This document shows positions 32,262 through 62,663 of a DNA stretch of 64,000 nucleotides, piece after piece (within the stretch, counting starts at the first letter, position 1; every line of letters begins with the position of its first letter). The notes beneath the pieces were generated by a model. The model saw only the letters and a list, made by a program, of their open reading frames with translations. It did not search any database and had not been told where the DNA came from. The DNA is from a virus. The stretch spans positions 11,478 to 75,477 of IMG/VR virus record IMGVR_UViG_3300037092_000015; one strand, 5' to 3'. Made by a program: the position numbers and the translations under genes.

Positions 32262-32534
32262 CACTCCACCAAGTCCAGCCGCACCTTCACCGGCACTGCC
32301 GCCCGACCGCAACAGCCCAGCGCCCGCACGTATAGCCGCCGCTCCGGAGCCGGAAACCCCGCCGCCTTGAACATGGCGTCCAACTTCCGGCGCTCCTGCG
32401 CCTTCCGCCGCCGCTCGCTGCATGGTTTCACTGGCTGTCATTGCTCCGTCACGTAACATGCCGGGAGAGAGGGAGGAAAAGGGACCTCTGGCTCCCGGCC
32501 CGGCCTGAGCCGGCAAATTGAAGTCGCTTGCTCA

Positions 32535-33164
32535 TCACGGCGACCCTAGCTTGTCTTGTGCCCACTTTGGGAACATTTGCGGCGACCCAGTCCGCAAGTC
32601 AACCGGCGCCTCCAAGCTGCCTTGCCGAACCGTTCCCTTGATCGGCGGATTGAACGTCAAATAGTCAAACGCTCCGCCGCCTTTCACCGGCACGCACACC
32701 GGGTTGACCCAGTCGCGCCCGCACGGGTCTGTTGGCGGTGTTATGGCGTGCGTTGCGATACCGCCGATGCGCCGTCCGCCTTCTACCCTGCCGTCCATCC
32801 ACTCCTCTGCTGCTTTGTTGAACGTCGCCAACGGAGCGTAAGCCCCGTTCTCTGTCAGCACCACCATCTGCAATCCTGCCTTGCTGTTTACCAGCCGCCA
32901 AGCGGCCATATAGACAACGTGGTCAAACGCCTCAGGAGGCACCGATCCGGGCGTCACGCTCAAAGGAGTGTGACCAGCATTCTGTATGGCCGCACGAACC
33001 TTCCGCACCATCTGCTCAAGCAGCATCGTGCTGCGCAATGGCGGTGTAGCCACCGGCGACCCGCTGCCGTCAGCCTTCGTCACCTGCTCGTAGTCGAGCG
33101 CCATGAACAGGTCCTTCTGCTCTGGCACCACCCAATTGGTGTTGATTTGCGGGGCTTGAATCAC
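32535..33164 (-). CDS. Head-tail adaptor, Mu gp36/DUF1320-like
   Basis: VRAAI..AGHTPLSVTPGSVPPE..VVYMAAWRL; follows the capsid genes. Confidence 0.65.
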   Translation of the reverse strand: MIQAPQINTNWVVPEQKDLFMALDYEQVTKADGSGSPVATPPLRSTMLLEQMVRKVRAAIQNAGHTPLSVTPGSVPPEAFDHVVYMAAWRLVNSKAGLQMVVLTENGAYAPLATFNKAAEEWMDGRVEGGRRIGGIATHAITPPTDPCGRDWVNPVCVPVKGGGAFDYLTFNPPIKGTVRQGSLEAPVDLRTGSPQMFPKWAQDKLGSP

Positions 33165-33171
33165 GCGGTTG

Positions 33172-33214
33172 AAATTGAAGCCCGCCGCCGCGCCTGGCTG
33201 GCAACGGCGGCGAG
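33172..33214 (-). terminator. Hairpin terminator candidate after the capsid operon
   Basis: CUCGCCGCCG...CGGCGGCGGG followed by CUUCAAUUUC. Confidence 0.45.
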
Positions 33215-33226
33215 CGTGTCAGTCCG

Positions 33227-33847
33227 TTACTGGCTGTTCGCCCACACGCTGTAGTTCGTGAGCGTCGCACCGGACGCGCCGATGCTGTAGATGTAGATGT
33301 AGGGGATCGCACCCTTGCCTGGCGTTGTGCTGACGCTATACACCTTGTTTGTCACTGTGATTGTGCCTGGCACACCGCTCAGCGCAAGCGTCACCGTGTC
33401 AAACAGTTGCATCCCGTTCGCGTTGTAGCAAGCACCGTTAGTCCCTCCAGTGCTCAAGGAAGGCGGCTGAACGGAAGCATACAGCACGTATGTCGCCGTG
33501 TAGGCTCCGCCTCCATTAGTGGCCGTAGCTGCCCCGTTGAACTGCAAGGCTAGCGAGTTCCCCGACAGCACGCCGTTAGGGCTTCCGCCTCCTCCGAATA
33601 CCGTCGCAGGCGCAGCGCAATTCACCAGCACTAGGTTGTTCGTGGTGACGCCCGAAGAGATTGACTGCGGATACAGACCGTTGGTGCAAACCAGCGGAGC
33701 GCCCGGCCCGTTGATGTTGCCAGATACCAGCACTTGCGACGGCAATCCTAACCCGAATGGGTTAGCCGAAGCCGCTTGGCTGGTGAACGATAAGGCGACC
33801 ACTGCAAAGGCCAGCGCCGCGATGAATGTAATTTTCTTGATGCTCAT
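33227..33847 (-). CDS. Signal-peptide protein directly after the capsid gene (decoration candidate)
   Basis: MSIKKITFIAALAFAVVALSFTSQA-A; TN/G-rich. Confidence 0.65.
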   Translation of the reverse strand: MSIKKITFIAALAFAVVALSFTSQAASANPFGLGLPSQVLVSGNINGPGAPLVCTNGLYPQSISSGVTTNNLVLVNCAAPATVFGGGGSPNGVLSGNSLALQFNGAATATNGGGAYTATYVLYASVQPPSLSTGGTNGACYNANGMQLFDTVTLALSGVPGTITVTNKVYSVSTTPGKGAIPYIYIYSIGASGATLTNYSVWANSQ

Positions 33848-33932
33848 ATTGGTCTTGTTTCTTTTTTTTGTGTTGTTTGGTCCGGCCAAAGCCGCCCGGC
33901 CCGTCGCCGGGCAGGCTCAAGCCGTCGGTTCG

Positions 33933-35711
33933 CTATTTCACCACGCACTGGATGCCTTGGCGCTCGTCGCCAACGCCGACGCCGAACATGGCCCGCAGGT
34001 GCATGTTCGCCATTTCGTAGTTGTGGTCGAGGAACTTAACGCTCAGGAACGGAATCCGGAGCTTCGGGCTCATCACGATCTCCAGCGCAGCCGTGCTCGG
34101 AATCTCCGGCATGATCTTGGTGTAGTCCAGCGGTGCGCGGCTGACGAACAGCAGCGCGTTGCGCGTGCCGGCAAAGCCAAGGACCGACGCGGTGGTCGGA
34201 TCCCCGGTGGACACCGAGTAGTTCGGTGGGGTGGCGCCGTCGGAAACTTCCGTCAGCGTGTCCGTCATCAACTGCGACTCGCTATACTTCACGTTCCCTA
34301 CGCGGTGGTAGTTGCCAGTCTTGATGAGGTCGTTGCCAGTCTTGCCGGCAATCGCGTCCTTGATTGCCCGCAAGGTTTGGTTCAACACAAACCCAGAGTC
34401 GGCAGGCAACAGCGAATAAATGTCTGGATGCAACCAAGCAAACCGCTCCACATCGGGGGAGTCTTCGGGCTCCTGGCCGCCGGGGAACTTGGCCATGTTC
34501 ATCACGCGAGGCAGTTCCGCCAGGAACGTGCTAACAGTAGCGCCCTTGACGTTGAACACTGCGCGGTTCAACACCGGGTCAGTGTATGCCGGGGCGAACT
34601 TCTTGCCAGCCGTGACCGTGCCGTCGTTCTCGATGCGCTGCGTCCCATTGACGATTGCGTTGACCAGTTGGAACACAATGCCTTCGCACAGCCCATAGAT
34701 TTGCACCGTCTTCTGCTCGTTGAAGAGCTGCCGGTAGGTGCTCGCCAAGAGCGTGTTCATGATGCTAATCGGGATGCCGATGTAGTTGTTCATTTGCACG
34801 TTGGCATTCCGAGCGTTGCCGACGTTGCCGCCCCATGCGCTGTTAGTCAGGTTCGTCCGCTTCTGGTAGCCCGGAACGATGATGTAGCGGGTGACCGCCT
34901 CCTGCATGAACAACACCGGCTGGTTTTCAACGTCCGTGCTGATGTCGTTCAACTGCGGCAGCATGTTCTCGATGTGCCCCAGGTTCCACGTCATAATCAG
35001 GTCGCTGTTCAAGGCGCCCTGCCCGGTCGTCGGACTCGTGCTGCCCGGATCGTTGTAGTCCGCAGCGCGAATAAGGTCCAAGATCGGGGCGTCGCCGCCG
35101 AGCGCCTTGACCTTGTTTTCGATCATGCCGATAAACGTCGCCCGCGCATTGGCCGCCTCAGTAGCCGCCATAATCGCCCGGGTGGCCGTGCCGCCGGTTC
35201 CGCAGGTGCGGATCAAACCGCCTTGGCGCCACGTCTTCAGGAAAGGCTCGCTGGCCTTGACGTAGCCTTGCACCATCTCGCCAAGCGACTGCTCGCAGCC
35301 GTGCAGCGTGCCGGTCTTCAGTTCGCCGGCCTGTATCTTCCGGTCGGACAGATCGTCTTGCTTCACCTTCACCGGCAGGTTGGCGATGTAGGCAACGCCG
35401 CGTCCCGGCTTGAGCATCTCAATGTCGAGCGCCTCAGCCCGGATGGTGTCTTTCACCTCTTCCTTGAGCGCGATGGCCCCGCGAACACGCGCCTGCACAA
35501 TGGCAGTGTCGATGCTCACTTCGGCCCGCACCCGCTCCCGAGCTTCGGCAGCCTTGATCTTCTCCGCGTTGTCGTAGTCGGTGGCGCGAACAGCCCAGCC
35601 GTCGTCCATCAGCAGGTCGACCTGCTCCTTCTCAACTTTCAGTCGTGTGCCCACTTCCCAATTCTTCTCGGGGCAGGCTTTCACCACGACGATTTCGTGT
35701 TTGTCGTTCAT
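33933..35711 (-). CDS. Major capsid protein with N-terminal scaffold-like region
   Basis: 592 aa after the protease; HK97-like C-terminal pattern (AWLHPDIYSLL, VKYSESQLM, LRAMFGVGVGD). Confidence 0.75.
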   Translation of the reverse strand: MNDKHEIVVVKACPEKNWEVGTRLKVEKEQVDLLMDDGWAVRATDYDNAEKIKAAEARERVRAEVSIDTAIVQARVRGAIALKEEVKDTIRAEALDIEMLKPGRGVAYIANLPVKVKQDDLSDRKIQAGELKTGTLHGCEQSLGEMVQGYVKASEPFLKTWRQGGLIRTCGTGGTATRAIMAATEAANARATFIGMIENKVKALGGDAPILDLIRAADYNDPGSTSPTTGQGALNSDLIMTWNLGHIENMLPQLNDISTDVENQPVLFMQEAVTRYIIVPGYQKRTNLTNSAWGGNVGNARNANVQMNNYIGIPISIMNTLLASTYRQLFNEQKTVQIYGLCEGIVFQLVNAIVNGTQRIENDGTVTAGKKFAPAYTDPVLNRAVFNVKGATVSTFLAELPRVMNMAKFPGGQEPEDSPDVERFAWLHPDIYSLLPADSGFVLNQTLRAIKDAIAGKTGNDLIKTGNYHRVGNVKYSESQLMTDTLTEVSDGATPPNYSVSTGDPTTASVLGFAGTRNALLFVSRAPLDYTKIMPEIPSTAALEIVMSPKLRIPFLSVKFLDHNYEMANMHLRAMFGVGVGDERQGIQCVVK

Positions 35712-35777
35712 TTGTGTCTGCTTTCTTTTCTGTTGTTGTCTGCTTTGCCCTTGTTCTGTGTTTCGGGGGGCACCCGC

Positions 35778-38700
35778 TCACCGCGTCAGCGGTAAATTCT
35801 TCTTCGCCGGGTGGTCGCGCTCGTAGGCGAGCACCTCAAGCACCTCAAGCCCAGTGGCCGGCTTTTTCGGCGGCAGCTTAACCTTCACAGGCATGACCGA
35901 AGCCATAACCTGCTCAGCTTTCTGGCGCCGCGCCGATAGCGACTCAATAACTCCCTTGGACGCCGCGCCTACTGACGCCAGCGACGGCGGCAGCGCCGGG
36001 GTGGCCGAGTGCACCGTGGCCGGGGACGCGACAGCGGATGCCTGTGCCATGCTACCTGCCGAACCTTTTTCTGTGACGGTCGTATGATAATGCTCGTGCG
36101 CCGCTTTCATTGCTTGCCGGTGGGTGTTGAATACGCCGTGGTCTTTCCACAGACCAGCGCTGTCAGGATGACCGGCAGAACTAAGAGCGAAACCTTTGCG
36201 CCGTGACAAAGGGTTGATATTGTATTGCACAGTGTCACCGCGCAGATGGCCGCCCGGAACTTCCTTCTGGAAACTATTAGCCTCTTGATCGTAGGCACCC
36301 GTCCCTGGCCCAAACGTATTCCAACTATCTTCGTCAGCCAAATTGTGCGTCTTGCGTGCGTCTGCGCTGGCCTTCCTTGCGGCCTCGCTCCAAGTGGCCC
36401 GCACGGTCTCCGCCGCGTCCAGTTCCACCGCCTTGACCTCTCCGCCTTGCTCCACCCAGCTTGCCACCACCTTGCCGGCATCAAAGCCGCCCTCGCTCGC
36501 GTAGGCCAGCGCAACCTTCTCCCCACCGCCCACGACCGGAACGTAACTCGTCTTCCGCTCCACTAGCACAGCCGGGGCGCCCAGCGTCACCGAACCGCCG
36601 TCCGCTGCGACCGTGAACTGCACCCGCAAGCTCTTGCCGTCCTTGCCGCAGACAACCGCTCCCCAGTCGCCGTCGTTGTCGTAGTCGCAAAGAATATCCT
36701 GCACCCAGATGCCGCCGCAAGGACCGCACGCGTTGGCACCCACCTCTGGCTCCTTCTGGAACCGTGGGTCGTTCTTGGCCGCCTCGCGCACCAAGTCAGC
36801 TAAGTCGCTGTAGAGCATTGCACTGGCGCGGACGGTAGCCTCGCTCCGCTGCTCTTGCGCCTCGGCGGCATGAACCGATCTGGATGAAGTAGCGTCGGTG
36901 GCTTGGACGCGACTGCGTAACACGCCCGCTTTGTCCAGTTCCTTGCCGTGCTTTTCGGCATGGGATTCATGCTCCTTTGCCACAGATTCCCATTGGCTTG
37001 CAGTGTTGAGATGCCACTTCCGCAAGTTGGGTTTGTCTTTGTTGAAATCCGAACCGGCAAGTTCTCGCATCTGCGCGGACTTACCTTGCAATTCTTCCGC
37101 CGCGTCTAAGTGCGCTGAATAGGCTTTCATGTGCCCTGCCGTATTGCTTGCTTCATCCGTAAGCCTGTGCGCCCTTGCACTTCTGGATTCGGCCGCCGCC
37201 TTCCGCGCTGCATCGGACCAAGTAGCCTGCACCACATTGCCAGTAGCCCGCACGACCTCGCGCCCGCCCGCCATTAACTCCGTAGCCCGCACCGGCGGCA
37301 TCGCACTGAACGCCGGCCTGTTCGTCAACGTGCCAAGGACAAAGGCTACCCCGGTGATCCGCGCCGGGTTGCTCACGCTCCCCCGCACCCCGTCCGGGAA
37401 CGCCAGAGCAGGCTTCGCGCAGTCGCAAGCCGCCACACCGTTCTGGCACGTCCCGCAAACGCACTTCGCGTAGTCCGCGTCCGTGCCGAATGAAGGAGAC
37501 CACCGACGCCAGTCGCGGTCGTTAACCGCCTTGGCACCGCTGCCGCTCGGCCTGCCTTCCAACAGCACCGAAGGTCGACCGTAAACCGGGTCGTTGCCAG
37601 CGCTGAACTCTGTAGCCCACACGCTCGCCTGCTTCTCGTCATGCTCGAAGCAACCGTATGGCTCCTGGTCCGGCTTCGCAGCCTTGATCGCGTCCATGCT
37701 CTCCTGGCATACCTTGGCGTCGCGCTCGGGCACAACGTCCACCGTCAAAGTCAACGCGCAGTCGCGGCCCTTGGTCACCGGGCCGGAGAACCCCGCCGTG
37801 ATGGTGTGGACGCCGCCTGGCGCCCAGCAGAAACGGACGGGAGCATTCACGCTCCAAGGTTCACTCTTGATTGAAATCTCTTCCGCCACTGCCGAGTAGC
37901 AGCGCACGATGTTGCTGTTGTCTTTGCTCATAGATTGGTTGGTTGCTTTGTTCTTGCCGTAAGCTGCCGCCTCTTTTGCTTTCCAAGTTGCCTTGTGCTT
38001 TTCCGCCAGTTTTGAATGCTCAAATTCAGCGTTGCCGTGATATTCCTGCATCACTCTGTCGTTTTGGGCAACAGCCTCGCATTTCAGTTTCTTATGCGCC
38101 TTTGCGGCATCCTTGTGCGCTTCTGCCGCCTTTGCGTGGCCCGGCATGTTGTGCATTTCAAGCGCCGTTTGCGTCCACTTCTGAGCGTCGTGTGAAAACT
38201 GTTCGGCGGACCAGTCGCGCCGCACATCCTCTTTATCCAACACCCCTGCTAATGGACTTTTTGAATACTGGTTCCCGTGAAACTCGTGCCCCGCCGCATA
38301 CGCGCCAACCGCCGCCGTTACCGTGCCGAGACGGGAGCCGGATTCTGTGGCGTTCATGCGCTCCATTTCTTGCAGTTCCATCGCCCTGTTGTGCGTTGTC
38401 ACTCCGCGCTGGTGGTGTATCGCCATACCTCTGTGATACTCAGCTTCCTCGCCCGACAGTTCTATTTTCCTGCTGCAAGCCAAATGAGCATCATGCGCCT
38501 TTTCGTGCGCCGCGTGCGCCGCTTGATGTTGCCCAAAGTTCCTTGTCCCGGCAGCTTGCATTGTCAAGTTGTCTGCAATATCGCTATCCTTTGCTGCCTG
38601 CCGCCTCGCCTCCAGCGCCGCGTCCCGGGCCGCCTGGCTCCACGTCGCCCGCACCGTGCCCGTGCGAACGGTGCAGGATGCTTTTGCAGTGCCCGCTTTG

Positions 38701-44262: not shown

Positions 44263-44554
44263 GCGTCGAACACCTTTCCTGCGCTAGCCACGATGCGGCC
44301 ACGCTTGTCGGTCAGCCTTTTGTTGTTTGCATTTGTTGTCAGCCCCATATTGCTCCCGTTATCTTTTCCTCCTTACTACCCCAAAACCCCATCGCCCGGT
44401 TCCTGGGGCGTGGCCTGCTCGTCTTGAACTCCTTGGCTATCTGCCGCGTCTGAGCCTCGACGAACACGTCGCCAGACTCCCACCTTATCGGCTCCCCGTT
44501 GCGACCGATGTCGGTCTCGCAGCCTGAAACTTCTAATGTCCTATGCATTGCGCT

Positions 44555-44575
44555 GTTATGTAACTTTGGTTAGGG
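44555..44575 (+). repeat. attI-like/secondary site at the array head
   Basis: GTTATGTAACTTTG-GTTAGGG; GTTAGGGGTCAT is the exact complement of ATGACCCCTAAC at attC1. Confidence 0.55.
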
Positions 44576-44576
44576 G

Positions 44577-45233
44577 TCATAGCAGCACGCCTTGGTTTGC
44601 CTCGCGTTCCAGACGGGAGCAGGCGGTTGCGTAGTGTGTCGGATTCTTCTCGATGCCCACGAAGTTGCGGCGAGTTTTCAGACAGGCCAGCCCTGTGCTT
44701 CCGCTGCCCATCCACGGGTCTAGCACGGTGTCGCCTTCCTTCGTTACGTCGAGGATGATTTGTTGCATCAGTCGCACCGGCTTCTGTGACGGATGCCCTG
44801 TCCATTCGTCGCCAGTGTATGACGCCGCGACGGTCGAGTTGATCAGGTATTGCCGATAGACTTTGTAGTTCGCCTGACCGTTGCGCTCGTAGATGCGTTC
44901 GTATTGGCTTCCGCAGCCTGTCTTTTTATCCCAGATGTGGATTGCCGTGTAGTCGAGCGGGAAGTCCGCCTTCGCAGACCAGAAGATGAGTTGCCGACAT
45001 TCTATCAGGCGCAGAGATTCGAGCAGCCCGTCCTCGTATCCGTAGGCTTCCGCGTGGTAGTCAGGATATGGCGGGTCACAGATTATCACGTCGCACTTCA
45101 TCGGGAGCATCGTCTGGCAGTCGCCGAGTATGAGAGTCGCCACGACATGACCCCTAACAAATCGCTTCAGCGAACCGCCGTTGGGCGTCGCAGGCGAGTT
45201 CGGGAGCGTTAGCTCGGCGGTCGCTGAGCTCAT
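44577..45233 (-). CDS. DNA methyltransferase (N6A/N4C, beta class), cassette-borne
   Basis: DPPY, HPSQKP, DPWMGSGSTG. Confidence 0.9.
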   Translation of the reverse strand: MSSATAELTLPNSPATPNGGSLKRFVRGHVVATLILGDCQTMLPMKCDVIICDPPYPDYHAEAYGYEDGLLESLRLIECRQLIFWSAKADFPLDYTAIHIWDKKTGCGSQYERIYERNGQANYKVYRQYLINSTVAASYTGDEWTGHPSQKPVRLMQQIILDVTKEGDTVLDPWMGSGSTGLACLKTRRNFVGIEKNPTHYATACSRLEREANQGVLL

Positions 45234-45242
45234 ACGTTAGAC
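45152..45242 (+). repeat. attC1
   Basis: CCCTAAC aaatc GCTTCAGC...GCTGAGC tcatac GTTAGAC. Confidence 0.88.
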
Positions 45243-45390
45243 AGCCGGGCCGCACGTTGGGTTTGCGTTTGGTTTTCGACCAGCGGGCGGCGACCGCAGC
45301 GCGGGCTTGCTCGCTGGTGCGGGCTTTTGCCGCGCCAGTCCCAGCAGACCCTCCGAGTTTTCCGAGCGCGACCGCGGCGGGATTTTTCAT
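45154..45390 (-). CDS. Small basic protein (KNPAAVALGKLGG type)
   Basis: MKNPAAVALGKLGGSAGTGAAKARTSEQARAAVAARW; tail reads into attC1. Confidence 0.65.
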   Translation of the reverse strand: MKNPAAVALGKLGGSAGTGAAKARTSEQARAAVAARWSKTKRKPNVRPGCLTYELSDRRANAPELACDAQRRFAEAIC

Positions 45391-45656
45391 TGAACTAAAC
45401 ATTTTGCCGCGCCGAGCGCGTCTGCCGTGATTCCAATCCGAAGCATATCTTCCGCCGCCCTGCGGGATTTTGGCCCGTAGTAATTTTCCCCCAGGAAGCT
45501 GCCAGCCTTGCAGTCAATCCATTCGATTTGGTCGGGCGCGATTTGCACCCCATCGCGGTCGCAGATTTGTTCGCCTCGAATTTCGACACCCTCACTCACA
45601 ACCAACATTTTCGTTACCGGATCAATCCGGTTTTTTATTCTGGCACAGGTATTCAT
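45387..45656 (-). CDS. Hypothetical cassette protein
   Basis: 89 aa, ATGA-coupled. Confidence 0.6.
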   Translation of the reverse strand: MNTCARIKNRIDPVTKMLVVSEGVEIRGEQICDRDGVQIAPDQIEWIDCKAGSFLGENYYGPKSRRAAEDMLRIGITADALGAAKCLVQ

Positions 45657-45695
45657 ATTTTTAAGCAGGGATTAGTTTCCTCTCCCTTTGATTTT

Positions 45696-46019
45696 TTAAT
45701 AGCGTTCGCCGGGAAGGTCTGGGGTTGCCCGGAGTTTGGGGCGCGCAAGGAAGGCTTTGTTGCTCGCTTCGCGAGCCGCTTTGCCAGCCTCACGTTGAGC
45801 CGCCGCCGCCGATTCTTCTTGCTGATAGGCGGCCAATTGTGCGGTATGCACACGAGCGCCAACCACTTTACCTTCGGGTGAATATTTGCTTCCGACCAGA
45901 TGAAACGGAATGGCTTCACCTTTTGCGGTTTTGAAGCCGCCTTCCGGTTGAAGGATTGCATCTGTCCACTGTCCGCCGCCGGTTTGTCCGGCTGGCACTC
46001 TTGGTTCGTCTTCGTTCAT
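45696..46019 (-). CDS. Cassette protein with N-terminal PRVPAGxxGGGQW motif
   Basis: MNEDEPRVPAGQTGGGQWT. Confidence 0.65.
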   Translation of the reverse strand: MNEDEPRVPAGQTGGGQWTDAILQPEGGFKTAKGEAIPFHLVGSKYSPEGKVVGARVHTAQLAAYQQEESAAAAQREAGKAAREASNKAFLARPKLRATPDLPGERY

Positions 46020-46067
46020 TTTTTCTTTCGTTGGCTTGGCTTACTGGGCCTCGCCCTTTATGCCTGC

Positions 46068-46096
46068 AATATACGCAAGCGATTGCGTATATGCAA
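46068..46096 (-). promoter_or_regulatory. Cassette-internal promoter overlapped by a 10-bp inverted repeat
   Basis: TTGCAT-17-TATATT; ATATACGCAA-gcga-TTGCGTATAT. Confidence 0.75.
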
Positions 46097-46158
46097 ACAA
46101 AATCTTCATTTATTTACACACTCACAAAACCATTGATTCTATTGACTCAAACCGGCCT

Positions 46159-46258
46159 GCCCAACAAATCGCTGCACGCAATGACCGCCGCATTGGGCGT
46201 CATTGGCGAGTTCGGGCATCGTGGGCGCGGCGTTCATGCGTGAGCTTGGTCGTTGGGC
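46159..46258 (+). repeat. attC2
   Basis: GCCCAAC aaatc GCTGCACG...CGTGAGC ttggtc GTTGGGC. Confidence 0.9.
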
Positions 46259-46283
46259 GCTTAGTCACTCCGCGCCCGATGCG

Positions 46284-46598
46284 TTACGGGTTTTTCGTGT
46301 AGTCCTTTTCCCCCGCCTTTTGGATATCCTCGAAAAATCCAGGCCGATGCACTCGCGCCACCGGCGAGTTGAACCACGGATTGTTGCGTTGCGCCCAGTC
46401 CACGGCCTTCTCCCCAGCGCGCGGCAGTGCGGCCTGCGCCTCTTTGATGGCTTGCGGAATATGCGTTTGCTCGATGTTTGTCCGCTGAGGCAGGCTTTGG
46501 AGTCTGCCGATTTCGGAGCTGATGACCGCTCCCGTCTCGGGCATGAATTGCCCGCCTTCCGGCGATCCCGCCGGGACTCTTGGTTGATCTGGATTCAT
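46284..46598 (-). CDS. Cassette protein with N-terminal QPRVPAGSPEGGQF motif
   Basis: MNPDQPRVPAGSPEGGQFM. Confidence 0.7.
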   Translation of the reverse strand: MNPDQPRVPAGSPEGGQFMPETGAVISSEIGRLQSLPQRTNIEQTHIPQAIKEAQAALPRAGEKAVDWAQRNNPWFNSPVARVHRPGFFEDIQKAGEKDYTKNP

Positions 46599-46621
46599 TG
46601 TGTGTTTTTGTTGTTCGACGC

Positions 46622-46716
46622 GCCCAACCAATCACTGGAGCGAATGCAGGCGGGCGCTGCCTGTTCGCAAATTCGGATGTCAGTGGCCGCCTGCATCGCT
46701 CAGTTCTGCGTTCGGC
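46622..46716 (+). repeat. attC3
   Basis: GCCCAAC...GTTCGGC; near-identical to attC8. Confidence 0.9.
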
Positions 46717-46988
46717 ATCTGAAATTCCAATTGCCTCTGGACCGGCTTGTCGAACGTTTTCCACGCTGGGTCAGTACAGAAGGGATGCAGGTCCACGAAG
46801 GCATTGTAGTAGATCCCCCAGGAGTGTGTGATGCAGATTCTGAGATTCAGTCGGAAGTTGTATTCTTCCGTAGTCAGGTATCGGTCATCATCGGCCTCCG
46901 AATGCCGAACCAGACGCTCCACACGAACCGCCGCCAGCCTCTCGGACTCCGGGAGGCTGTTTCGTTTTCGGGCGGCAGTGGTGTTCAT
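46680..46988 (-). CDS. Cassette protein (starts in attC4, ends in attC3)
   Basis: ...VERLVRH...MPNAELSDAGGH. Confidence 0.6.
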   Translation of the reverse strand: MNTTAARKRNSLPESERLAAVRVERLVRHSEADDDRYLTTEEYNFRLNLRICITHSWGIYYNAFVDLHPFCTDPAWKTFDKPVQRQLEFQMPNAELSDAGGH

Positions 46989-47017
46989 GGCGGCGGTCGG
47001 TGAGCTACTTGTTCGGC
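46904..47017 (+). repeat. attC4
   Basis: GCCGAAC cagac GCTCCAC...GTGAGC tactt GTTCGGC. Confidence 0.88.
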
Positions 47018-47322
47018 GCGCGCAGGCATTCCTCCCACGTCATGCCGCAGACTTTCTTGTAATGCTTTGCCGAGGCCACCAGTTCCCGCGCGGTCTTTCC
47101 CGACGCGACGACCTGCTCTCGCGTGTAGTCGAAGTTCACCGGCTTTCCGTCTTGGTCCTGCCATTGGCCTTCGCTGCGCTCGTTCCAGCCCAGGACCAGG
47201 AAGTGGGTTCCGTAGGGAGAAGTGATGCGCGCCGCGTCGCACTTGAACATGCGGACGAATCGCCGAACCAAGCGCTCCAGACAACCGCCGACGGGCGTCT
47301 CTTTTGAAGTCGTAGCGTTCAT
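47005..47322 (-). CDS. Cassette protein (starts in attC5, ends in attC4)
   Basis: ...LERLVRR...RAPNK. Confidence 0.65.
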   Translation of the reverse strand: MNATTSKETPVGGCLERLVRRFVRMFKCDAARITSPYGTHFLVLGWNERSEGQWQDQDGKPVNFDYTREQVVASGKTARELVASAKHYKKVCGMTWEECLRAPNK

Positions 47323-47352
47323 GTCGGCGGTGTCTGAGCTTGGTCGTTCGGA
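47262..47352 (+). repeat. attC5
   Basis: GCCGAAC caagc GCTCCAGA...TCTGAGC ttggtc GTTCGGA. Confidence 0.88.
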
Positions 47353-47699
47353 GATGCATTAATGCGCTTGATAATACAGCTTGTGCAGAGCGTTCTCCCT
47401 CGTGTGGTCGTTGGCAGACTCCCCATCCGGCCTGTGTTCTGCGGAAATGCTGCGATGATATTCCTGGCATTGCTCCGCGCTTTGGATAGCTGCTCACGCT
47501 TGTTCCCCCCCAGCCTAGGGGCGACCAGTGCAGATAGCGCGTCCAGCAGGATTCGCTCTCGCGCTCGGACAGCCGTTCCCAGTCCTGAGACTGATGTTGG
47601 TCCGCGGACGATACCATTGCATAGGTCGGTGATCTGGCTCTCAATCGCAGAACCAAGCGGGTCGAGCGAACTGCCCGATTGCGTCTCAGGTTTATTCAT
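47319..47699 (-). CDS. Cassette protein with C-terminal CxxC
   Basis: Starts in attC6, ends SPNDQAQTPPT in attC5. Confidence 0.6.
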   Translation of the reverse strand: MNKPETQSGSSLDPLGSAIESQITDLCNGIVRGPTSVSGLGTAVRARERILLDALSALVAPRLGGNKREQLSKARSNARNIIAAFPQNTGRMGSLPTTTRGRTLCTSCIIKRINASPNDQAQTPPT

Positions 47700-47738
47700 A
47701 GCGTTTTGGCGGGCAGTCGCTCACCCGCGGCGTTCGGT
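47647..47738 (+). repeat. attC6
   Basis: GCAGAAC...GAGCGAACTGCCCG/CGGGCAGTCGCTC...GTTCGGT. Confidence 0.82.
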
Positions 47739-47995
47739 GGAAGCGGTTGACCGCATTCCTTGCAACAGCTTGGGGCCTTCTGCTTCTCTGCCAGTTCTGC
47801 GTCGTGGACCAGCATCGCCGCTGCCAACCTTCGGCTGGCCATCGTGAAACGGCGCCACAAATATTCTTCGTGCGTTTGCAGGCACGGCCTTGGTCTGTTC
47901 GTATGCGCCAGCGCCCATGCATCCCTCCACCAAACGCACCGAACCAATCGCGGCAGCGAACCGCCGACTGGCGTTGTTGCAATAGGGGTGTTCAT
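47696..47995 (-). CDS. Cassette protein with CxxC
   Basis: Starts in attC7, ends PPNAAGERLPAKTL in attC6. Confidence 0.6.
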   Translation of the reverse strand: MNTPIATTPVGGSLPRLVRCVWWRDAWALAHTNRPRPCLQTHEEYLWRRFTMASRRLAAAMLVHDAELAEKQKAPSCCKECGQPLPPNAAGERLPAKTL

Positions 47996-48031
47996 TGGTG
48001 GTTATCGCCGCCGCTCAGCTTGTCGTTGGGG
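47938..48031 (+). repeat. attC7 (more degenerate)
   Basis: ACCGAAC caatc GCGGCAGC...GTTGGGG. Confidence 0.7.
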
Positions 48032-48058
48032 CGCTTAGTCACTCCACGCCCAGTTACG

Positions 48059-48334
48059 CTATTGCGCGGTGTTTTCACACGCCGGTAGTGCCGATGTGTC
48101 GGCGACTTTCTTGATGTCCCCAAGCTTGGCTCGTACGTCGTCAATGTGCAGGCATTCCGCCAGGTTGCATCCAGCTTGGTCTGCTACCGGCACGGCTAGG
48201 TTGCCGTTGCAGGCGTCGTTTCCAGGAGTCGCATCGTGGAGTATTCCGACGATGGACTTCACGTAGTATCCGGGCGGCACGATGCGGAGCACGCGGTCCC
48301 CGTTCTTTGCTTCTCTTCCGTTTGCGTAGTGCAT
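48059..48334 (-). CDS. Cassette protein (MHYANGREAKNGD type)
   Basis: 91 aa, self-contained within its cassette. Confidence 0.7.
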   Translation of the reverse strand: MHYANGREAKNGDRVLRIVPPGYYVKSIVGILHDATPGNDACNGNLAVPVADQAGCNLAECLHIDDVRAKLGDIKKVADTSALPACENTAQ

Positions 48335-48360
48335 ACTTATGTTCTGTGTTTACCGTCGCG

Positions 48361-48455
48361 CCCTAACCAATCACTAGAGCGAATGCAGGCGGGCGCTGCC
48401 TGTTCGCAAATGGGTTTGTCAGTGGCCGCCTGCATCGCTCAGTTCTGTGTTCGGT
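48361..48455 (+). repeat. attC8
   Basis: CCCTAAC...GTTCGGT; near-identical to attC3. Confidence 0.9.
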
Positions 48456-48646
48456 GATGTGTTTTCCACGGTCACATACCCAAGGAATGCCATCGTTTTC
48501 CCGCAACAGCGAGGCATGGGAGCATCTGCCCCGAGATAGGCAGGCACATATTCCTCTCGCCCACACTGTCGGCAGTAGTGCTTGAAGCATCTCACCGAAC
48601 GAGCCGCGTCAGCCAACGGCGGGGTTACGCTTTTAGTGTTCTTCAT
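48419..48646 (-). CDS. Zn-ribbon cassette protein
   Basis: YCRQCG...PRCCGKTM; ends SPNTELSDAGGH. Confidence 0.6.
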   Translation of the reverse strand: MKNTKSVTPPLADAARSVRCFKHYCRQCGREEYVPAYLGADAPMPRCCGKTMAFLGYVTVENTSPNTELSDAGGH

Positions 48647-48685
48647 ACGTCCTTTGGCCCGCCGTGGCTGCGCTCTGTGTTATGC
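48594..48685 (+). repeat. attC9
   Basis: ACCGAAC...CAGCCAACGGCGGG/CCCGCCGTGGCTG...GTTATGC. Confidence 0.85.
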
Positions 48686-48769
48686 CCTACCATCGGAAGG
48701 TTCCCGTATCGTCGATTTTGCGGGTGAGCCACCAGACCACGATCATCAGTATTATCAGTTCCATATGGT

Positions 48770-48964
48770 TTATTTATTCCCTCTGAGCAGGCGGTAGGCG
48801 CGGATCGCTACAGCGTCCCACACGGCTACTGATTCGCTTGGCAGGTCTCTGAATTTACAGAGGGGGCGCCCCCAGATTGATTTTGGCTGGCTCAGCATTT
48901 CTTTCCGGCTAGCGTTGTAGAGTTTGATAGCCAGTGTTCGGGCTTCATCTAGTTTTTGTTTCAT
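48770..48964 (-). CDS. Cassette protein
   Basis: 64 aa, ATGA-coupled. Confidence 0.5.
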   Translation of the reverse strand: MKQKLDEARTLAIKLYNASRKEMLSQPKSIWGRPLCKFRDLPSESVAVWDAVAIRAYRLLRGNK

Positions 48965-49194
48965 GGCAGTAGGTCGTTGAGGCGCTTCTGGAGCGCGGTT
49001 GCCAGCACGCTAACCTTTGTCTGTTGCTCTGAGGCTGGCAGGTTTTCGATTTCGTAGCACAGGTTCAGCGCGGCGCTTCTGGCGTCCCCGATTCCCCGGT
49101 GCAGTTTGATTTCTTTCGCAGTCGTAGCCGTGGCCACCTGCGAGAGTTCCAGATACAGGCTGTTGATAGTGTCGAGTTCCATAGGCATAACCAA
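48961..49194 (-). CDS. Cassette protein
   Basis: 77 aa, starts at attC10. Confidence 0.55.
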   Translation of the reverse strand: MVMPMELDTINSLYLELSQVATATTAKEIKLHRGIGDARSAALNLCYEIENLPASEQQTKVSVLATALQKRLNDLLP

Positions 49195-49243
49195 TCACGC
49201 CACCGAACCGGCTCCGCGCCGGTCGGTGAGTTCCTTGTTATGC
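49185..49243 (+). repeat. attC10 (59 bp)
   Basis: GCATAAC...CACCGAACCGG/CCGGTCGGTG...GTTATGC. Confidence 0.88.
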
Positions 49244-49473
49244 CTGCACCCCAGGACGTGAGTGATGGTGCCGCCATTCGGGCCGGGGTCGTTGAGGCAC
49301 TCGGGGCACTGCACGGCCATTTTGTCCGCGCAGGTTTTTCCCGGCGCATATGTCGCGCAGTTCGAGCATTCACCGAGCAGATACCATCCGCACCAGCACT
49401 TTGCTGCCGCTGGCAGGTTGCTCAGCATGTCCATGTATTCTTGTTGGTCAGAGTTAAACATCGCAGCGCTCAC
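49195..49473 (-). CDS. Cys-rich cassette protein
   Basis: CWCGW...CSNC...CPEC; ends RHNKELTDRRGAGSVA. Confidence 0.6.
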   Translation of the reverse strand: MSAAMFNSDQQEYMDMLSNLPAAAKCWCGWYLLGECSNCATYAPGKTCADKMAVQCPECLNDPGPNGGTITHVLGCRHNKELTDRRGAGSVA

Positions 49474-50153
49474 AATTCATCCGGTTCGCAGGCGTTGTCG
49501 AAGTGCCGCTTGTCCTTCTCGACGCCGATAAATTTACGACCAGTCCGCAGGCAGGCGATTCCCGTGCTGCCGCTGCCCATGTATGGGTCTAGCACCGTTG
49601 CCCCGACCGGCACGCCAACTTGTTCCAGACACCACGCCATCAGCGCGACCGGCTTTTGGTTGCTGTGGATTCGCGGCTCGTCCTTTTCCTTCGCTTGCGC
49701 ACCGTTCCAATAGCGCGTTTTCAGCCGCAGAACGCCGTCCTGGTTTGTCCACGCCGTCTCGCCGTCGGCCTGGTCGTTGCTTGGGATGCCTTCGCGCTTG
49801 TCCCATATCAGCCACCGTGAGGAGTTCGGCAGGCGGTTCGCGTAGTGATTCGCGCCCCACAGCACCACAATTGGATAGCCGAGCCACGGGCGCGGGTCGA
49901 ACGGCTTGTCATCGCCCATGATTGCCTCGCCATCAGTGCCGAGTTTCACGCCGCCTTTACGCGCTCCGTGGCAGTAGGCGATTCCATACGGCGGGTCGCT
50001 GATTAGCGCGTCCGCGTCTATCCACGGAAGCTCCAGACAGTCGGCATTGATTAGTCGGCAGTCTCCGATTGTGACCCCTAACAAGTCGCTGCACGCAATG
50101 CCCACCGCGTTCACGGTTTGCTTGCAATCGGGTGCTGTTGGCGCGGTGGTCAT
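49470..50153 (-). CDS. DNA methyltransferase (N6A/N4C, beta class), cassette-borne, slightly truncated at C-terminus
   Basis: SDPPYG, HSNQKP, DPYMGSGSTG. Confidence 0.9.
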   Translation of the reverse strand: MTTAPTAPDCKQTVNAVGIACSDLLGVTIGDCRLINADCLELPWIDADALISDPPYGIAYCHGARKGGVKLGTDGEAIMGDDKPFDPRPWLGYPIVVLWGANHYANRLPNSSRWLIWDKREGIPSNDQADGETAWTNQDGVLRLKTRYWNGAQAKEKDEPRIHSNQKPVALMAWCLEQVGVPVGATVLDPYMGSGSTGIACLRTGRKFIGVEKDKRHFDNACEPDEL

Positions 50154-50173
50154 GCGTGAGCTAGTCGTTATCC
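50076..50173 (+). repeat. attC11
   Basis: CCCTAAC aagtc GCTGCACG...CGTGAGC tagtc GTTATCC. Confidence 0.88.
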
Positions 50174-50488
50174 TTCATGCTGTGTAGGTATTCCGTGGTC
50201 AGGGTGCTGGTATTCTGGATACTTGCGGCCCTTGACAGGCTCTCCGCGCAGCGGAGCTCCGCACTGCTCCATACATGCCACTCCAGTTGCTGTGATCTGT
50301 CGGATTTCATGCAGCGCCTTGTCGTCGCCGTGCCCTGTTACCCACGCATGGCGGGCATCGTTGCACAGTTTTTCGATGATGAGCAGCCACTCGGCTACAC
50401 AGTGTTGATGATCGGGCCACTTCTGTTCTTGGTAGGCGCGTTCGCCTTCGATTGCATGTCTTACGTCTGCATCTATATGTCGATTCAT
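50168..50488 (-). CDS. Cassette protein, helical MazG-like candidate
   Basis: AIEGERAYQEQKW...EWLLII...EIRQITATGVACME. Confidence 0.55.
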   Translation of the reverse strand: MNRHIDADVRHAIEGERAYQEQKWPDHQHCVAEWLLIIEKLCNDARHAWVTGHGDDKALHEIRQITATGVACMEQCGAPLRGEPVKGRKYPEYQHPDHGIPTQHEG

Positions 50489-50489
50489 A

Positions 50490-50580
50490 GGATAACGAGT
50501 CGGTTCAGCGACTGCCGGGTTCGCGTTTGGGTTTCAGTTCGGGAGTCAGCGGCCCGGCATCGCTGACCTCTTTGTTCCGG
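50490..50580 (+). repeat. attC12
   Basis: GGATAAC gagtc GGTTCAGC...GCTGACC tcttt GTTCCGG. Confidence 0.85.
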
Positions 50581-55302: not shown

Positions 55303-56106
55303 CTATTGCATGCCCAGAACTGCCGGGAACTCCTTCATGTTCCAGATCGCGTCAGGCAACCGGCCTTTCATGCCCGGCCTCTCCCCGCCGTCCTGCTTGC
55401 AATAGAACTTAATGCCGTTTCGCCAGCAGAATTTCCAGCATCCAGTTACCCACTCCGGTTCGGACGGCCTGCGCTTTGGCCCGCTCTCGCCACCGTAAAT
55501 AATCCAGTGGACGAAGTCCCACCCCGTCCAGTCTATGCTCGACAGCGCGGGTTCGTAGCTGACGAATTTGACCGCGGCGGGAATGGCCTTGAATGCCTCC
55601 CGGCGTTCGTCGGCCCGCTTCTGGTCCTCGACGCTGACTCCAATCCAGACGTTTTCAAGGTAAAATTTGCCTTCCGATTGGGCATCCAAACAGCGCATGG
55701 CAATGTCAGCCCCCAGCACATCGACCCGCATGATTTCCACCATCCTGTGCGCCCACAGGTCAATGCGTTTAGTCAGCAGCAGCCAATCCAGATTCGGAGT
55801 CTGCCGAATCAGGTCTAAGAACTCACCCAACCACTCGACCGGCGCTTGCGGGTCAAGCCAGTCCATGAGCGACGGGAACATCCGGGGCCGCTCCGCCGCG
55901 CCTTCCGCCTTTCGGTTGAGATTCCGCGCCATTTCCCAAAAGCCCTTGCTTCGGACTCGCTGGGATTTGTCGCCCCAACCAGCCCAACCGCGCTTCAAGG
56001 TCATCTCGCGAGCGTAGCAGTGGGCACAGCCGGGGCTGACCTCTGTGCAACCGAACCACGGACTGCCCGTACTGGACGCCCAGCTTATCTTTGTAGTTTC
56101 GCTCAC
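55303..56106 (-). CDS. DUF5131 (phage Gp37/Gp68) family protein
   Basis: TKISWA...GCTEVSPGCAHCYA, LLTKR, NVWIGVSVEDQ, SYEPAL, GGESGP. Confidence 0.9.
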   Translation of the reverse strand: MSETTKISWASSTGSPWFGCTEVSPGCAHCYAREMTLKRGWAGWGDKSQRVRSKGFWEMARNLNRKAEGAAERPRMFPSLMDWLDPQAPVEWLGEFLDLIRQTPNLDWLLLTKRIDLWAHRMVEIMRVDVLGADIAMRCLDAQSEGKFYLENVWIGVSVEDQKRADERREAFKAIPAAVKFVSYEPALSSIDWTGWDFVHWIIYGGESGPKRRPSEPEWVTGCWKFCWRNGIKFYCKQDGGERPGMKGRLPDAIWNMKEFPAVLGMQ

Positions 56107-61795: not shown

Positions 61796-61981
61796 TTACT
61801 TGCAGTGAGCCATGAACTCCGCCCGAACCTCCGGCTCTAGGAACACGCCGGACAGTGCACAGGTCACCATCTCTGCCCGCTGCTTCATAACCGCCAACCT
61901 TACGAAGATGGACGGCTCCCCAGCCCTGGCGCCTTCGCCTTGGATGCTGTAGAACAGTTCTGAAACGCGTAGTATTCTCAT
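61796..61981 (-). pseudogene. queE'-'folE deletion fusion remnant
   Basis: VSELFYSIQGEGARAGEPSIFVRLA (QueE N-terminus, cut before CxxxCxxC) joined to VMKQRAEMVTCALSGVFLEPEVRAEF (FolE-like C-terminus). Confidence 0.8.
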
Positions 61982-62376
61982 GGCTCCCCGTATCTCGCGC
62001 AGCTTGTGCACGTTTCATCAATCTCCACTGCCGCCAGAAGCGCGTGCGGCCCTAGCTTACCCGACGGGCCGAACTGCCCTACCAGTCTGCCATAGAGCCA
62101 CGTTGCAACCGCCTCACTTGTCGGCCTGTCCGTCGCCAGCGTTTCGTTGAGAAACCTGTGGTCCAAGTAGCCGTCCACCAACGGCTCCAGCACCGCCTTT
62201 AAGTCGCCGTAGTCCACCAGCATCCCGGCCTTCGGTCCGTCGCGGTGAAGCTCGCTGCCACGCACAACAACCCGACCTTTCCATGAATGTCCATGCAACC
62301 TCGCGCAAGGTCCGTCGTGGCCTACCAACACGTGCGCCGCCTCGAACTTAAACTCTTTTGTGATTGTGAATGGCAT
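61978..62376 (-). CDS. queD: 6-carboxytetrahydropterin synthase
   Basis: KEFKFEAAH...CARLHGHSW...GMLVDY...LDHRFLN...PTSE...ETCTS. Confidence 0.93.
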   Translation of the reverse strand: MPFTITKEFKFEAAHVLVGHDGPCARLHGHSWKGRVVVRGSELHRDGPKAGMLVDYGDLKAVLEPLVDGYLDHRFLNETLATDRPTSEAVATWLYGRLVGQFGPSGKLGPHALLAAVEIDETCTSCARYGEP

Positions 62377-62381
62377 AGCGG

Positions 62382-62663
62382 TTAAACCTTCTTCACCTTC
62401 GTTTGTATGTTCAGCTCGTTGCTGAATTGATGCCACACATCCACTGGCTTGAGACCTAGTTTTGCCTCTCCCATCTCGTCAAGCACGCCATGCGACATCT
62501 CTTCTGCGTCTTGCAACGAGAGCGAAATGCTTTTGTGCGTCTTTGGAATGGTGATGTGAAGCCCTTGCGTTTCGATGTGATGCCCGTCGTCGCGTGTGTA
62601 ACTTTTCACTTGGACCGTTTTGCCGGTGCGGGTTGTTCGAGTGTATTCTTTTACTGCGCTCAT
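62382..62663 (-). CDS. Small protein with VKEYTRTTRTGKTVQVKSYTR motif
   Basis: 93 aa, downstream of a promoter motif. Confidence 0.65.
   Translation of the reverse strand: MSAVKEYTRTTRTGKTVQVKSYTRDDGHHIETQGLHITIPKTHKSISLSLQDAEEMSHGVLDEMGEAKLGLKPVDVWHQFSNELNIQTKVKKV

Follow-up and report, generated by a model that had tools for sequence, protein, structure and literature searches.

A conserved non-coding frame with unrelated cargo genes in integron-type cassettes of a peat phage

Two stretches of a phage record from peat (75 kb, 81% complete) are genuine integron-type gene cassettes; they belong to an array of attC sites that the phage carries without an integrase. The window, which is the whole 64,000-nt stretch of the record that was analysed, carries the cassettes at about 44.6–50.6 kb. 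The turnover of cargo inside a conserved frame is real, and its mechanism is one that we infer. The best explanation, with a probability of about 0.6, is that in these integron-type cassettes a non-coding module is reused, cargo and attC are exchanged by ordinary phage recombination, and the units are moved by IntI.

The array and its two cassettes

The features of the array are as follows (window coordinates).

44569..50580, plus strand: whole attC array, about 12 attC sites located and folded
46159..46258, plus strand: attC of the preceding cassette (E3); hybrid R′ box at 46252-46258, with G from E3 and TTGGGC from cassette 1
46253..46710, plus strand: cassette 1, mobile unit, from the L050 comparison; an X3 contig diverges after 46715
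46255..46277, minus strand: 23-nt block, copy 1; hairpin stem GGGCGC/GCGCCC, loop GGAGTGACTAA (gene-sense strand)
46284..46598, minus strand: cargo ORF1, 104 aa, N-terminal tag MNPDQPRVPAG..GGQF; orphan gene
46599..46619, minus strand: ORF1 leader, A/C-rich on the sense strand, between attC and start codon
46620..46716, plus strand: extended R″ (GCGCCCAAC) and attC E4; R′ box GTTCGGC at 46710-46716
47938..48031, plus strand: attC of the preceding cassette (E8); hybrid R′ box at 48025-48031; an X4 contig diverges inside at 47998
48026..48449, plus strand: cassette 2, from the cassette alignment
48029..48051, minus strand: 23-nt block, copy 2; GGGCGT...GCGCCC on the sense strand, G-U pair kept
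48059..48334, minus strand: cargo ORF2, 91 aa, family pattern MHYxNGREAKNGD...CLHxDD
48335..48357, minus strand: ORF2's own leader; two X6 contigs carry another leader and attC from 48336
48358..48455, plus strand: extended R″ (GCGCCCTAAC) and attC E9; R′ box GTTCGGT at 48449-48455

An earlier note on this DNA held that the cassettes at 46252-46716 and 48025-48455 share their start and end, and homology at both ends bears this out. The left ends read GTTGGGC (46252-46258) and GTTGGGG (48025-48031), followed by GGGCGCTTAGTCACTCC(G/A)CGCCC, a block that matches twice in the window and never in 100 shuffles; the 3′ stem half of copy 1 overlaps the R′ box. The right ends, 46623-46715 and 48362-48454, exhibit 92% identity over 93 nt and 94% over the attC interior. 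In an alignment of cassettes 1 and 2, homology is confined to the first ~26–35 nt and the last ~105 nt, and the middle is unalignable. In each R′ box the crossover separates G from TT, and that first G still belongs to the preceding attC; the exchangeable units are therefore 46253-46710 and 48026-48449.

The enclosed ORFs, 46284-46598 and 48059-48334, are different and self-contained, as the note had stated: both are on the minus strand, each with its own start and stop. They are not diverged homologues, giving no BLASTP alignment even at E ≤ 100, and neither has a Pfam or PHROG family. The leader of ORF1 resembles those of the same phage's other genes (repeat families D3 and D5). A short leader ORF in E4 and E9 that ends at the cargo start was considered as a translational coupling device and rejected, since it does not survive a 1-nt change in the L050 cassette, which is otherwise near-identical.

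The attC sites were detected by a geometry scan of our own, which works without a covariance model and misses E8 and E11. Site length ranges from 59 to 114 nt across the ~12 sites of the window; MAFFT and RNAalifold on 12 of them gave a partial structure only, and Rfam has no match in the array or the window. Inverse core and core boxes are present in E4 (GCCCAAC...GTTCGGC) and E9 (CCCTAAC...GTTCGGT), in agreement with the pattern RYYYAAC / GTTRRRY over ~55–140 nt. Every element displays the geometry R″(7)-5 nt-3 bp-bulge-6 bp-bulge...6 nt-R′. By a bulge-asymmetry score, which gave 13 for the top strand and 10 for the bottom strand of a real attC (aadA1 of R100), the plus strand scores as the top strand in 10 of the 12 window sites. 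The second bulge is A (bottom-strand T), as usual, while the first varies and is not the usual bottom-strand G. In the E4-family attCs, 10 of 17 stem pairs are kept through double changes, and the R″/R′ stem is extended to 9–10 bp.

Each cassette opens with 8–9 bases belonging to its own attC, which they close as its R′ half. In 9 of 11 distinct cassettes, the variable N of 5′ GTT(N)GGGCGC and the N′ of the same cassette's GCGCCC(N′)AAC are complementary; counting G-T raises this to 10 of 11 (permutation p = 6e-4, for cassettes that are not phylogenetically independent).

With the attC top strand on the plus strand, all cargo genes of the array (44569..50580) are on the minus strand. The cargo ORFs in the window and in the related phages G002 and G003 are likewise all antisense to the attC top strand, and the same-strand arrangement of ordinary integron cassettes was not found. 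With cargo in this orientation, unlike that of ordinary integron cassettes, the cassettes could conceivably arise by a process of their own.

At the array edge, contigs of two peat runs diverge from the window at 44571, where the GTT of the first junction lies. No integrase with attI was found beside the array. Because the 75-kb record (81% complete) holds no IntI, tyrosine recombinase or intI remnant, the window array is a CALIN. Nor was a general recombinase found among the record's ORFs scanned.

Movement of whole cassettes and the integrase of relatives

Cassette 1 also occurs elsewhere. L050:94-563 corresponds to window 46243-46713 at 98.5% identity, with unrelated flanks and breaks at the R′ boxes; the homology starts at 46243, and the attC body upstream in L050 differs from E3. 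An X5 peat contig joins 46709 to 47011 (shorter side of the joint only 31 nt), so that precisely the next cassette is missing, from one GTTCGGC box to another. L050, the X5 contig skipping 46710-47010 and the N/N′ covariation show that exchange takes place exactly at G|TT. The contig comparisons show that whole cassettes have been moved and deleted through integrase-type exchange at the G|TT of R′.

The complete 43.5-kb phage G002 holds a frame cassette together with an intI that scores 347 bits against the TIGR02249 cut-off of 265; this intI adjoins an array with the same strand layout as in the window. The integrase of G003, at 245 bits, nearly reaches that cut-off. In both phages the cargo reads towards intI. 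The nearest bacterial IntI proteins are only 39–47% identical, and no host can be called. Neither a reverse transcriptase nor a group II intron was found in G000, G001, G002 or G003.

Could the repeats be something other than integron sites, such as MITE-like or REP-like elements, RNA processing hairpins or a chance likeness? The window phage has no integrase, the genes are antisense to attC, and the hairpins lie within a polycistronic transcript, all of which would fit. However, the elements have canonical attC geometry that matches the real-attC control, exchange is exact at R′, N and N′ covary, and a relative has IntI. The repeats are confined to one array, most copies being alike in structure and not in sequence, and the chance expectation is 0. 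MITE/REP-type repeats would be scattered over the genome in many near-identical copies, with terminal inverted repeats and target-site duplications, and the array does not fit this pattern. We consider a non-integron origin hardly credible.

Turnover of cargo within the frame

The block comprises the R′ half and a further 15 nt, which together form a 23-nt hairpin with an invariant 11-nt loop. The loop 11-mer occurs only in these contexts within the 1.19 Mb of sequence compared. On the sense strand, C/U variation in the stem still pairs with G, and in L107 the stem is compensated (GGGTC/GGCCC); the same fold is predicted in all three hairpins compared. The stem competes with R′/R″ pairing. Loop invariance, together with a variable stem whose pairing is maintained on the gene-sense strand (the bottom strand of attC), makes a DNA or RNA hairpin bound by a protein the most likely reading.

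An exact-match search, which makes the apparent invariance partly one of ascertainment, located the block in 16 other contigs, 5 viral and 11 from metagenomes; a relaxed pattern added one contig only. The block pattern has 0 matches in GTDB genomes, and no host or prophage copy is known. For the attC core, an exact 35-nt search found no other viral contig, and a stem pattern with a free loop was needed.

The search of viral and metagenome contigs answers whether the flanks occur with other cargo: six cargo families without cross-similarity stand behind the same 23-nt block. Clusters of attC interiors, {E4, L050, E9, L043} at 90–100% identity, {L044, L047} at 83% and {L045, L049} at 94%, each contain different cargo. 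The E4/E9 subtype is seen with ORF1, ORF2 and a Mom-like gene, the E9 attC being 94% identical to the attC of the Mom-like cassette in L042/L043. Conversely, ORF2b is located in three attC types. Among frame-mates the homology ends at positions 26–29 and resumes 4–25 nt before R″. The attC interiors of the frame cassettes diverge by 30–45% with an identical block, and the block is also found beside attCs outside the E4 family (L048, L053, L124).

Peat samples of runs X1–X6 contain the phage, and contigs of the peat runs reveal the same junctions. A further contig joint is 49231/48674. These Logan contigs were used at ≥90% likeness and may be chimeric, and in runs X3–X6 array stretches outside contig cover were not counted as absence. 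In an X5 contig another cargo directly follows the block (block end 46278, divergence from 46279 on). In two X6 contigs the sequence changes at the ORF2 start codon (48335), beyond which ORF2 has a different leader and attC. In three peat runs, another attC body follows the R″ of E3 (46167) with the cargo unchanged. From the sequence comparisons and these contigs, cargo (leader and ORF) and attC body are shown to reassort at what appear to be two more fixed junctions, one after the hairpin and the other before the extended R″. The comparisons are equally compatible with movement of the cargo and with movement of the attC. The note had proposed that cargo was exchanged or captured within a conserved empty frame; the turnover in a conserved frame is supported, and neither empty frames nor recombination intermediates were seen in the contigs compared.

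The ORF2 family points to capture of ordinary genes. ORF2 is a member of a widespread small phage protein family, and only 3–4 of its 78 viral loci have the block or an attC. The block-bearing members are polyphyletic, with at least 3 changes on starred branches of the tree. The window ORF2 groups with non-cassette genes (support 99/96), and part of their leader is common to it. Judged from the tree, the family has entered the frame several times, at least three, from ordinary phage contexts. The block was also considered as a native 3′ flank of ORF2; it accompanies ORF2b outside an attC context in L056 and L107, but most ORF2 genes have no block, and this is a lead only. ORF2 is modelled as a small beta-barrel (pLDDT 69.6), for which the PDB gave weak matches only (best E = 0.11), and the Atlas places the protein in unnamed viral clusters only.

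In the explanation that we prefer, the shared chassis is the cassette's non-coding recombination module, contiguous over ~130 nt in the circular cassette form. The module consists of an E4-lineage attC with extended stem and the 15 nt that complete the 23-nt hairpin; hairpin and attC enclose a gene that is self-contained and runs antisense to attC, and that brings an A/C-rich leader and a stop codon of its own. Cargo and attC would be exchanged by homologous recombination in the 23-nt block and in the R″/attC sequence, and now and then an illegitimate join would add an ordinary phage gene together with its native leader. Selection would retain only joins at gene borders, and an IntI from a co-resident phage or the host would move the finished unit. 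Against this, the R″ side offers just ~10 nt of homology, little for a homologous exchange to work with.

The same junctions could also arise if a dedicated process attached a ready-made module of attC and hairpin gene by gene, each pair being an independent birth. Six unrelated cargos have tight junctions at identical positions, the cargos bring native phage-type leaders, and ORF2 entered the frame at least three times; moreover, homogeneous attC families on unrelated chromosomal-integron cassettes are usually read in this way (PMC8352920, PMC5371416). However, the 30–45% difference of attC interiors around an identical block indicates that the module is not a one-piece copy of one template. 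The block beside non-E4-family attCs, and the failure to find an empty module anywhere, or a reverse transcriptase or group II intron in the four phage records named above, also speak against genesis from a template, which we regard as possible but unlikely.

Alternatively, the cargos may stay in place while attC and R′ half are overwritten by gene conversion, within arrays or between co-infecting phages, so that the likeness of E4 and E9 reflects concerted evolution. E4 and E9 are 94% alike at a distance of 1.7 kb, whereas the attCs of orthologous ORF2 cassettes elsewhere are 52–69% alike. The different attC bodies found after the E3 R″ (46167), with R″ and cargo unchanged, agree with overwriting, and so does the broken N/N′ pairing of two cassettes, L051 being mismatched and cassette 2 having only G-T. 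Against it, the same attC subtype accompanies ORF1 in L050 and the Mom-like gene in L042/L043, so the likeness extends beyond one array, and overwriting gives no account of the identical block at the other end of the cargo. Homogenisation is also mechanistically the same exchange viewed from the other side. As a separate account it is distinctly unlikely.

A second site-specific reaction has also to be weighed, in which IntI or another recombinase cuts the hairpin (R′-11 nt-R″-like) and the extended R″, thereby swapping the cargo. The block indeed reads as R′, 11 nt and an R″-like half, perfect in L048 (GTTCGGGCGC...GCGCCCGAAC); GGGCGY and GGGCGC form sense-strand direct repeats around leader and ORF; and the junction positions are fixed. 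The use of secondary sites by integrases is known (bioRxiv 10.1101/2022.09.11.507474). Yet any hairpin pairing with R′ creates the direct repeat automatically, the block is followed by unconserved bases, no reciprocal products were seen, and ORF2b stands with the block but without any attC in L056 and L107. A second reaction is thus improbable. The related proposal that hairpin and attC are a dedicated capture adaptor, the hairpin being a second recombination site by which leader and ORF are loaded into and unloaded from a standing frame, is doubtful. If it were true, the arrays would record cassette birth in progress and offer a sequence-defined, testable route to the origin of cassettes.

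Relation to known systems

The repeats of Vibrio cholerae are the homogeneous attC family of a sedentary chromosomal integron, a classic clue to local cassette making. Chromosomal integrons as a rule have near-identical attC sites on cassettes that are otherwise unrelated (PMC8352920), and the phage cassettes resemble those of sedentary chromosomal integrons in having near-identical attCs with unrelated genes in one host or lineage (PMC8352920, PMC5371416). In the present case, however, the conserved part runs 15 nt past the crossover into the cassette, attC bodies diverged by 30–45% accompany an identical block, and the phages that carry the elements come from peat and freshwater metagenomes.

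PeSL (promoter-early stem-loop) cassettes of T4-type phages were reportedly described by Arbiol et al. in 2010, and lambdoid phages have 'linker' sequences at module borders. Both are similar to the present arrays in that small accessory genes lie between conserved non-coding stem-loops and unrelated ORFs are swapped by ordinary recombination. Unlike them, the frame has no promoter signal, its borders are integron recombination sites, and relatives possess an integrase. The promoter scan gave 4 promoter-like sites against 2.7 expected, with 0 in the frame, and terminator-like sites displayed no enrichment. A PeSL-type regulatory cassette, with a promoter and stem-loop at each border, was rejected.

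Phage-borne integrons and CALINs (Qi et al. 2023, PMC9892861) share with the window array the R″/R′ boxes, the bulged imperfect hairpin and the G|TT crossover, as well as first bases of the cassette that complete its own attC. They too are arrays of small genes, including N6/N4 DNA methylases, with an integrase in some phages only. The present cassettes differ from integron cassettes in that all cargo is antisense and in G002 and G003 is read towards intI, that on the bottom strand the first extra-helical base is something other than the usual G, that a conserved 23-nt hairpin lies directly behind R′, and that cargo and attC reassort at junctions IntI does not cut.

How a gene becomes joined to an attC is the subject of the group IIC-attC intron model (PMC3001079, PMC7923331). 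In the four phage records neither a reverse transcriptase nor a group II intron was detected, and the gene orientation is opposite to that of the model. The genesis of integron cassettes is 'largely unknown' (PMC5371416), and the note had suggested that the two cassettes bear on it. They do so indirectly; part of the chassis is the cassette's own R′ half, as in any integron cassette. Still, one frame with six unrelated genes and junctions mapped within a few bases makes a compact, sequence-defined case, and reuse of the frame can be tested at the bench with the integrase of the complete relative G002. Cassette contents can apparently be replaced at sites that are not cut by the integrase, in which case attC type says less about the origin of a cargo than is often assumed.

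Bacterial integrons store defence genes (bioRxiv 10.1101/2024.07.02.601686). The cargos of these phage arrays include DNA methylases, a Mom-like modifier and Acb2/Tad1-like proteins; the arrays may accordingly hold a stock of counter-defence genes and so be a mirror image of the bacterial integrons.

Phage arrays, attC sites and integrase

The IMG/VR virus record is linear, 75.5 kb long and about 81% complete, and the window covers its bases 11478–75477. Its long ORFs are all on the minus strand, and its gene products include a Mu-type portal, a large terminase and three N6/N4 DNA methylases. The phage also has genes for a QueD-type 6-pyruvoyl-tetrahydropterin synthase and for a DUF5131 protein (window 61978–62436 and 55303–56106), which suggest 7-deazaguanine-type DNA modification. 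An array is located between the terminase genes and the early region:

44.6–50.6 kb, top strand +, about 12 imperfect palindromes of 59–114 nt with ends RYYYAAC...GTTRRRY

Each element comprises a 7-nt R'', a 5-nt spacer, 3 bp, a bulged base, 6 bp, a bulged A and a stem, and the other arm has a 6-nt spacer before R'. The aadA1 attC of plasmid R100, taken as a real control, exhibits the same geometry on its coding (top) strand. With a strand score that penalises bulges on the 3' arm more, this control scores 13 for top versus 10 for bottom, and the + strand is preferred in 10 of the 12 window sites. The window elements are attC sites (E2 to E12 below) with the + strand as top strand. Because the genes are on the minus strand, the cargo is antisense to the attC top strand.

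Neither an integron integrase nor another tyrosine recombinase, nor a remnant of one, was found in the 75.5-kb record. The stretch of about 300 nt at 44263–44576, between a terminase small-subunit-like ORF and the first junction (GTTAGGG at 44569), contains no convincing gene. Contigs from two peat runs diverge at 44571, the GTT of this junction. One possibility is an attI-like site whose integrase is gone.

Phage record G002 (43.5 kb, rated 100% complete; loci L060 and L063–L065) holds a cassette of the kind described in the next section, together with:

30478–31470, minus strand, intI (TIGR02249 at 347 bits, NCBIfam cut-off 265)
31717–36868, top strand +, array of at least 10 attCs

The start of intI faces the array, and its stop overlaps the start of the next gene by 4 nt. 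The cargo ORFs are all on the minus strand and are therefore read towards intI. G002 is a phage record with a full integron. The same layout is found in phage record G003, with an IntI-like gene scoring 245 bits. The closest bacterial IntI proteins share just 39–47% identity. Phage integrons and CALINs, methylase cassettes included, were already described (PMC9892861).

Two cassettes with shared ends and their movement

Two cassettes of the window, 1 and 2, share the following layout:

46255–46277 and 48029–48051, 23-nt block GGGCGCTTAGTCACTCC(G/A)CGCCC
46284–46598, minus strand, ORF1 (104 aa)
48059–48334, minus strand, ORF2 (91 aa)
46622–46716 and 48361–48455, closing attC sites E4 and E9

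The chance expectation of the block in the window by shuffling is 0, and the GTT of an R' box immediately precedes each copy. The two attCs are 92% identical over 93 nt (94% in the interior). Pairwise alignment confines the homology of the cassettes to the first 26–35 nt or so and the last 105 nt or so, and no similarity is detectable between the ORF1 and ORF2 proteins. The earlier note's description of a common left end and a near-identical attC around unrelated ORFs is borne out. Chromosomal integrons are known to hold unrelated cassettes with near-identical attCs (PMC8352920).

In most other cassettes of 46680–47995 (E4 to E8) the ORF lacks a separate start and stop: it begins at ATGAAC in its own attC and stops in the next, frequently overlapping the following start (ATGA), and the R' box CCGAAC is always read Pro-Asn. 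Cassettes 1 and 2 are exceptional in that each has a leader and a stop of its own. An N-terminal tag, MNxDxPRVPAGxxxGGQ(W/F), is common to two otherwise unrelated cassette proteins (45696–46019 and 46284–46598), and a contig of peat run X5 keeps the E4 attC, leader and tag with a different protein body from 46549 on.

Metagenome contig L050 matches window 46243–46713 at 98.5% identity, with unrelated DNA on either side. The likeness starts in the last bases of another upstream attC and stops at the GTTC of the R' box, which therefore sets cassette 1 at 46253–46710. Like a canonical integron cassette, it carries its own attC at the right end. Logan contigs of peat metagenomes supplied population data. 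An X5 contig joins 46709 to 47011, skipping 301 nt with seven letters common at the joint; the next cassette (46710–47010) has been lost precisely, between two GTTCGGC boxes. In run X6 one contig connects 49231 back to 48674. The step measures 558 nt, which equals the spacing of the two GTTATGC boxes of the next sites. This joint, one cassette length (48674–49231), fits a circle, a duplication or tandem copy, or a reordering. Whole cassettes are thereby shown to move by exchange at G|TT.

Recurrence of the block and its hairpin

The exact block is present in 5 viral and 11 metagenome contigs; an exact block search of GTDB genomes gave none. In nearly all cases it lies behind an attC R' box, with an attC of 89–130 nt 190–490 nt downstream. 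The same flanks do recur with other cargo, since six families without cross-similarity stand behind the block in these 16 contigs:

ORF1
ORF2 family
146-aa protein
Acb2/Tad1-hairpin proteins (PF24729 at 31.6 and 32.4 bits, cut-off 27; L045:912–1169, L053:443–745)
79-aa protein
relative of phrog_6978

A gene for a Mom-like DNA modification protein (L043:6086–6616) is carried by an attC 94% identical to E9. The 5' end of this cassette differs, and it too pairs with the cassette's own R''. Array cargos also include N6/N4 DNA methylases (window 44577–45233, 49470–50153). Phage arrays with Acb2/Tad1-hairpin, Mom-like and methylase cargo look like stores of counter-defence genes. The attCs E3 and E12 (46159–46258 versus 50076–50173) are 80–86% alike over the two arms and E2, E6 and E8 are likewise alike, while their genes differ; at L048:661–781 an E3-like attC again precedes the block. 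As a general feature of this pool, different cargos share an attC.

Eleven distinct cassettes have GTT(N)GGGCGC at the 5' end and GCGCCC(N')AAC at the beginning of their own attC. In 9 of these 11, or 10 with G-T pairs, N, its absence included, is complementary to N' (permutation p = 6e-4). The first 8–9 shared bases are therefore the R' half of an extended R stem, which forms solely in the circular form of the cassette. The remaining 15 nt are extra and form with the R' half a hairpin with an 11-nt loop. The variable stem base on the gene-sense strand is C or U, opposite G. Locus L107 has a compensated stem, GGGTC/GGCCC, and an unchanged loop, and the same fold is predicted for all three stem versions. 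The loop 11-mer does not occur elsewhere in the 1.19 Mb of sequence examined. A second G002 cassette (L044, minus strand, near 7934) has a diverged block, AGGCGC GGGGTAACTAA GCGCCC TAAC, with the loop GGGGTAACTAA; the hairpin family therefore includes variants beyond the reach of exact-match scans.

Reassortment within the frame

The attCs of the E4 family are homologous, with a conserved loop and compensatory change in 10 of 17 stem pairs, and their interiors cluster across cargo boundaries:

ORF1, ORF2a and Mom-like, 90–100%
146-aa protein and ORF2b, 83%
Acb2-like and 79-aa protein, 94%

ORF2b is found in three attC types. Homogenisation of attCs is a possible source of such likeness. In every same-cluster pair the likeness ends at positions 26–29 and returns 4–25 nt before the extended R''. 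The same junctions appear in peat data: one contig has different cargo immediately behind the block (46278), two join another leader and attC to ORF2 directly after its start codon (48335), and in three runs the R'' of E3 (46167) leads into different attC bodies.

Exchange is visible in two layers, at G|TT and at both inner frame borders. The inner-border exchange replaces leader and ORF or, equivalently, the attC body, and the known reaction of the integrase cannot account for it. A second site-specific reaction is possible. So is a template-driven process of cassette genesis, yet no reverse transcriptase or group II intron was found in the four phage records (G000, G001, G002 and G003). We favor ordinary recombination within the conserved frame, which would be joined by rare illegitimate capture filtered by selection. 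The earlier note had proposed that cargo was exchanged or captured within a conserved empty frame. Cargo turnover stands, by reassortment and mapped junctions, but no empty frame was found among the contigs recovered. Cassette genesis is still unexplained (PMC5371416). The novelty here lies in three points: a hairpin is conserved behind R', non-R' junctions are mapped and go with reassortment, and the setting is phages with antisense cargo.

The ORF2 family comprises more than 540 small phage proteins, and a block or attC is present at only 3–4 of 78 viral ORF2 loci. Accounting for the block-bearing members on a maximum-likelihood tree takes four changes, of which well-supported branches force at least three. 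The window ORF2 clusters with genes of ordinary contexts (support 99/96), with which it has about 19 nt of A/C-rich leader in common. ORF2b occurs with the block and without any attC at loci L056 and L107, a hint that the hairpin may have begun as a 3' element of the ORF2b gene.
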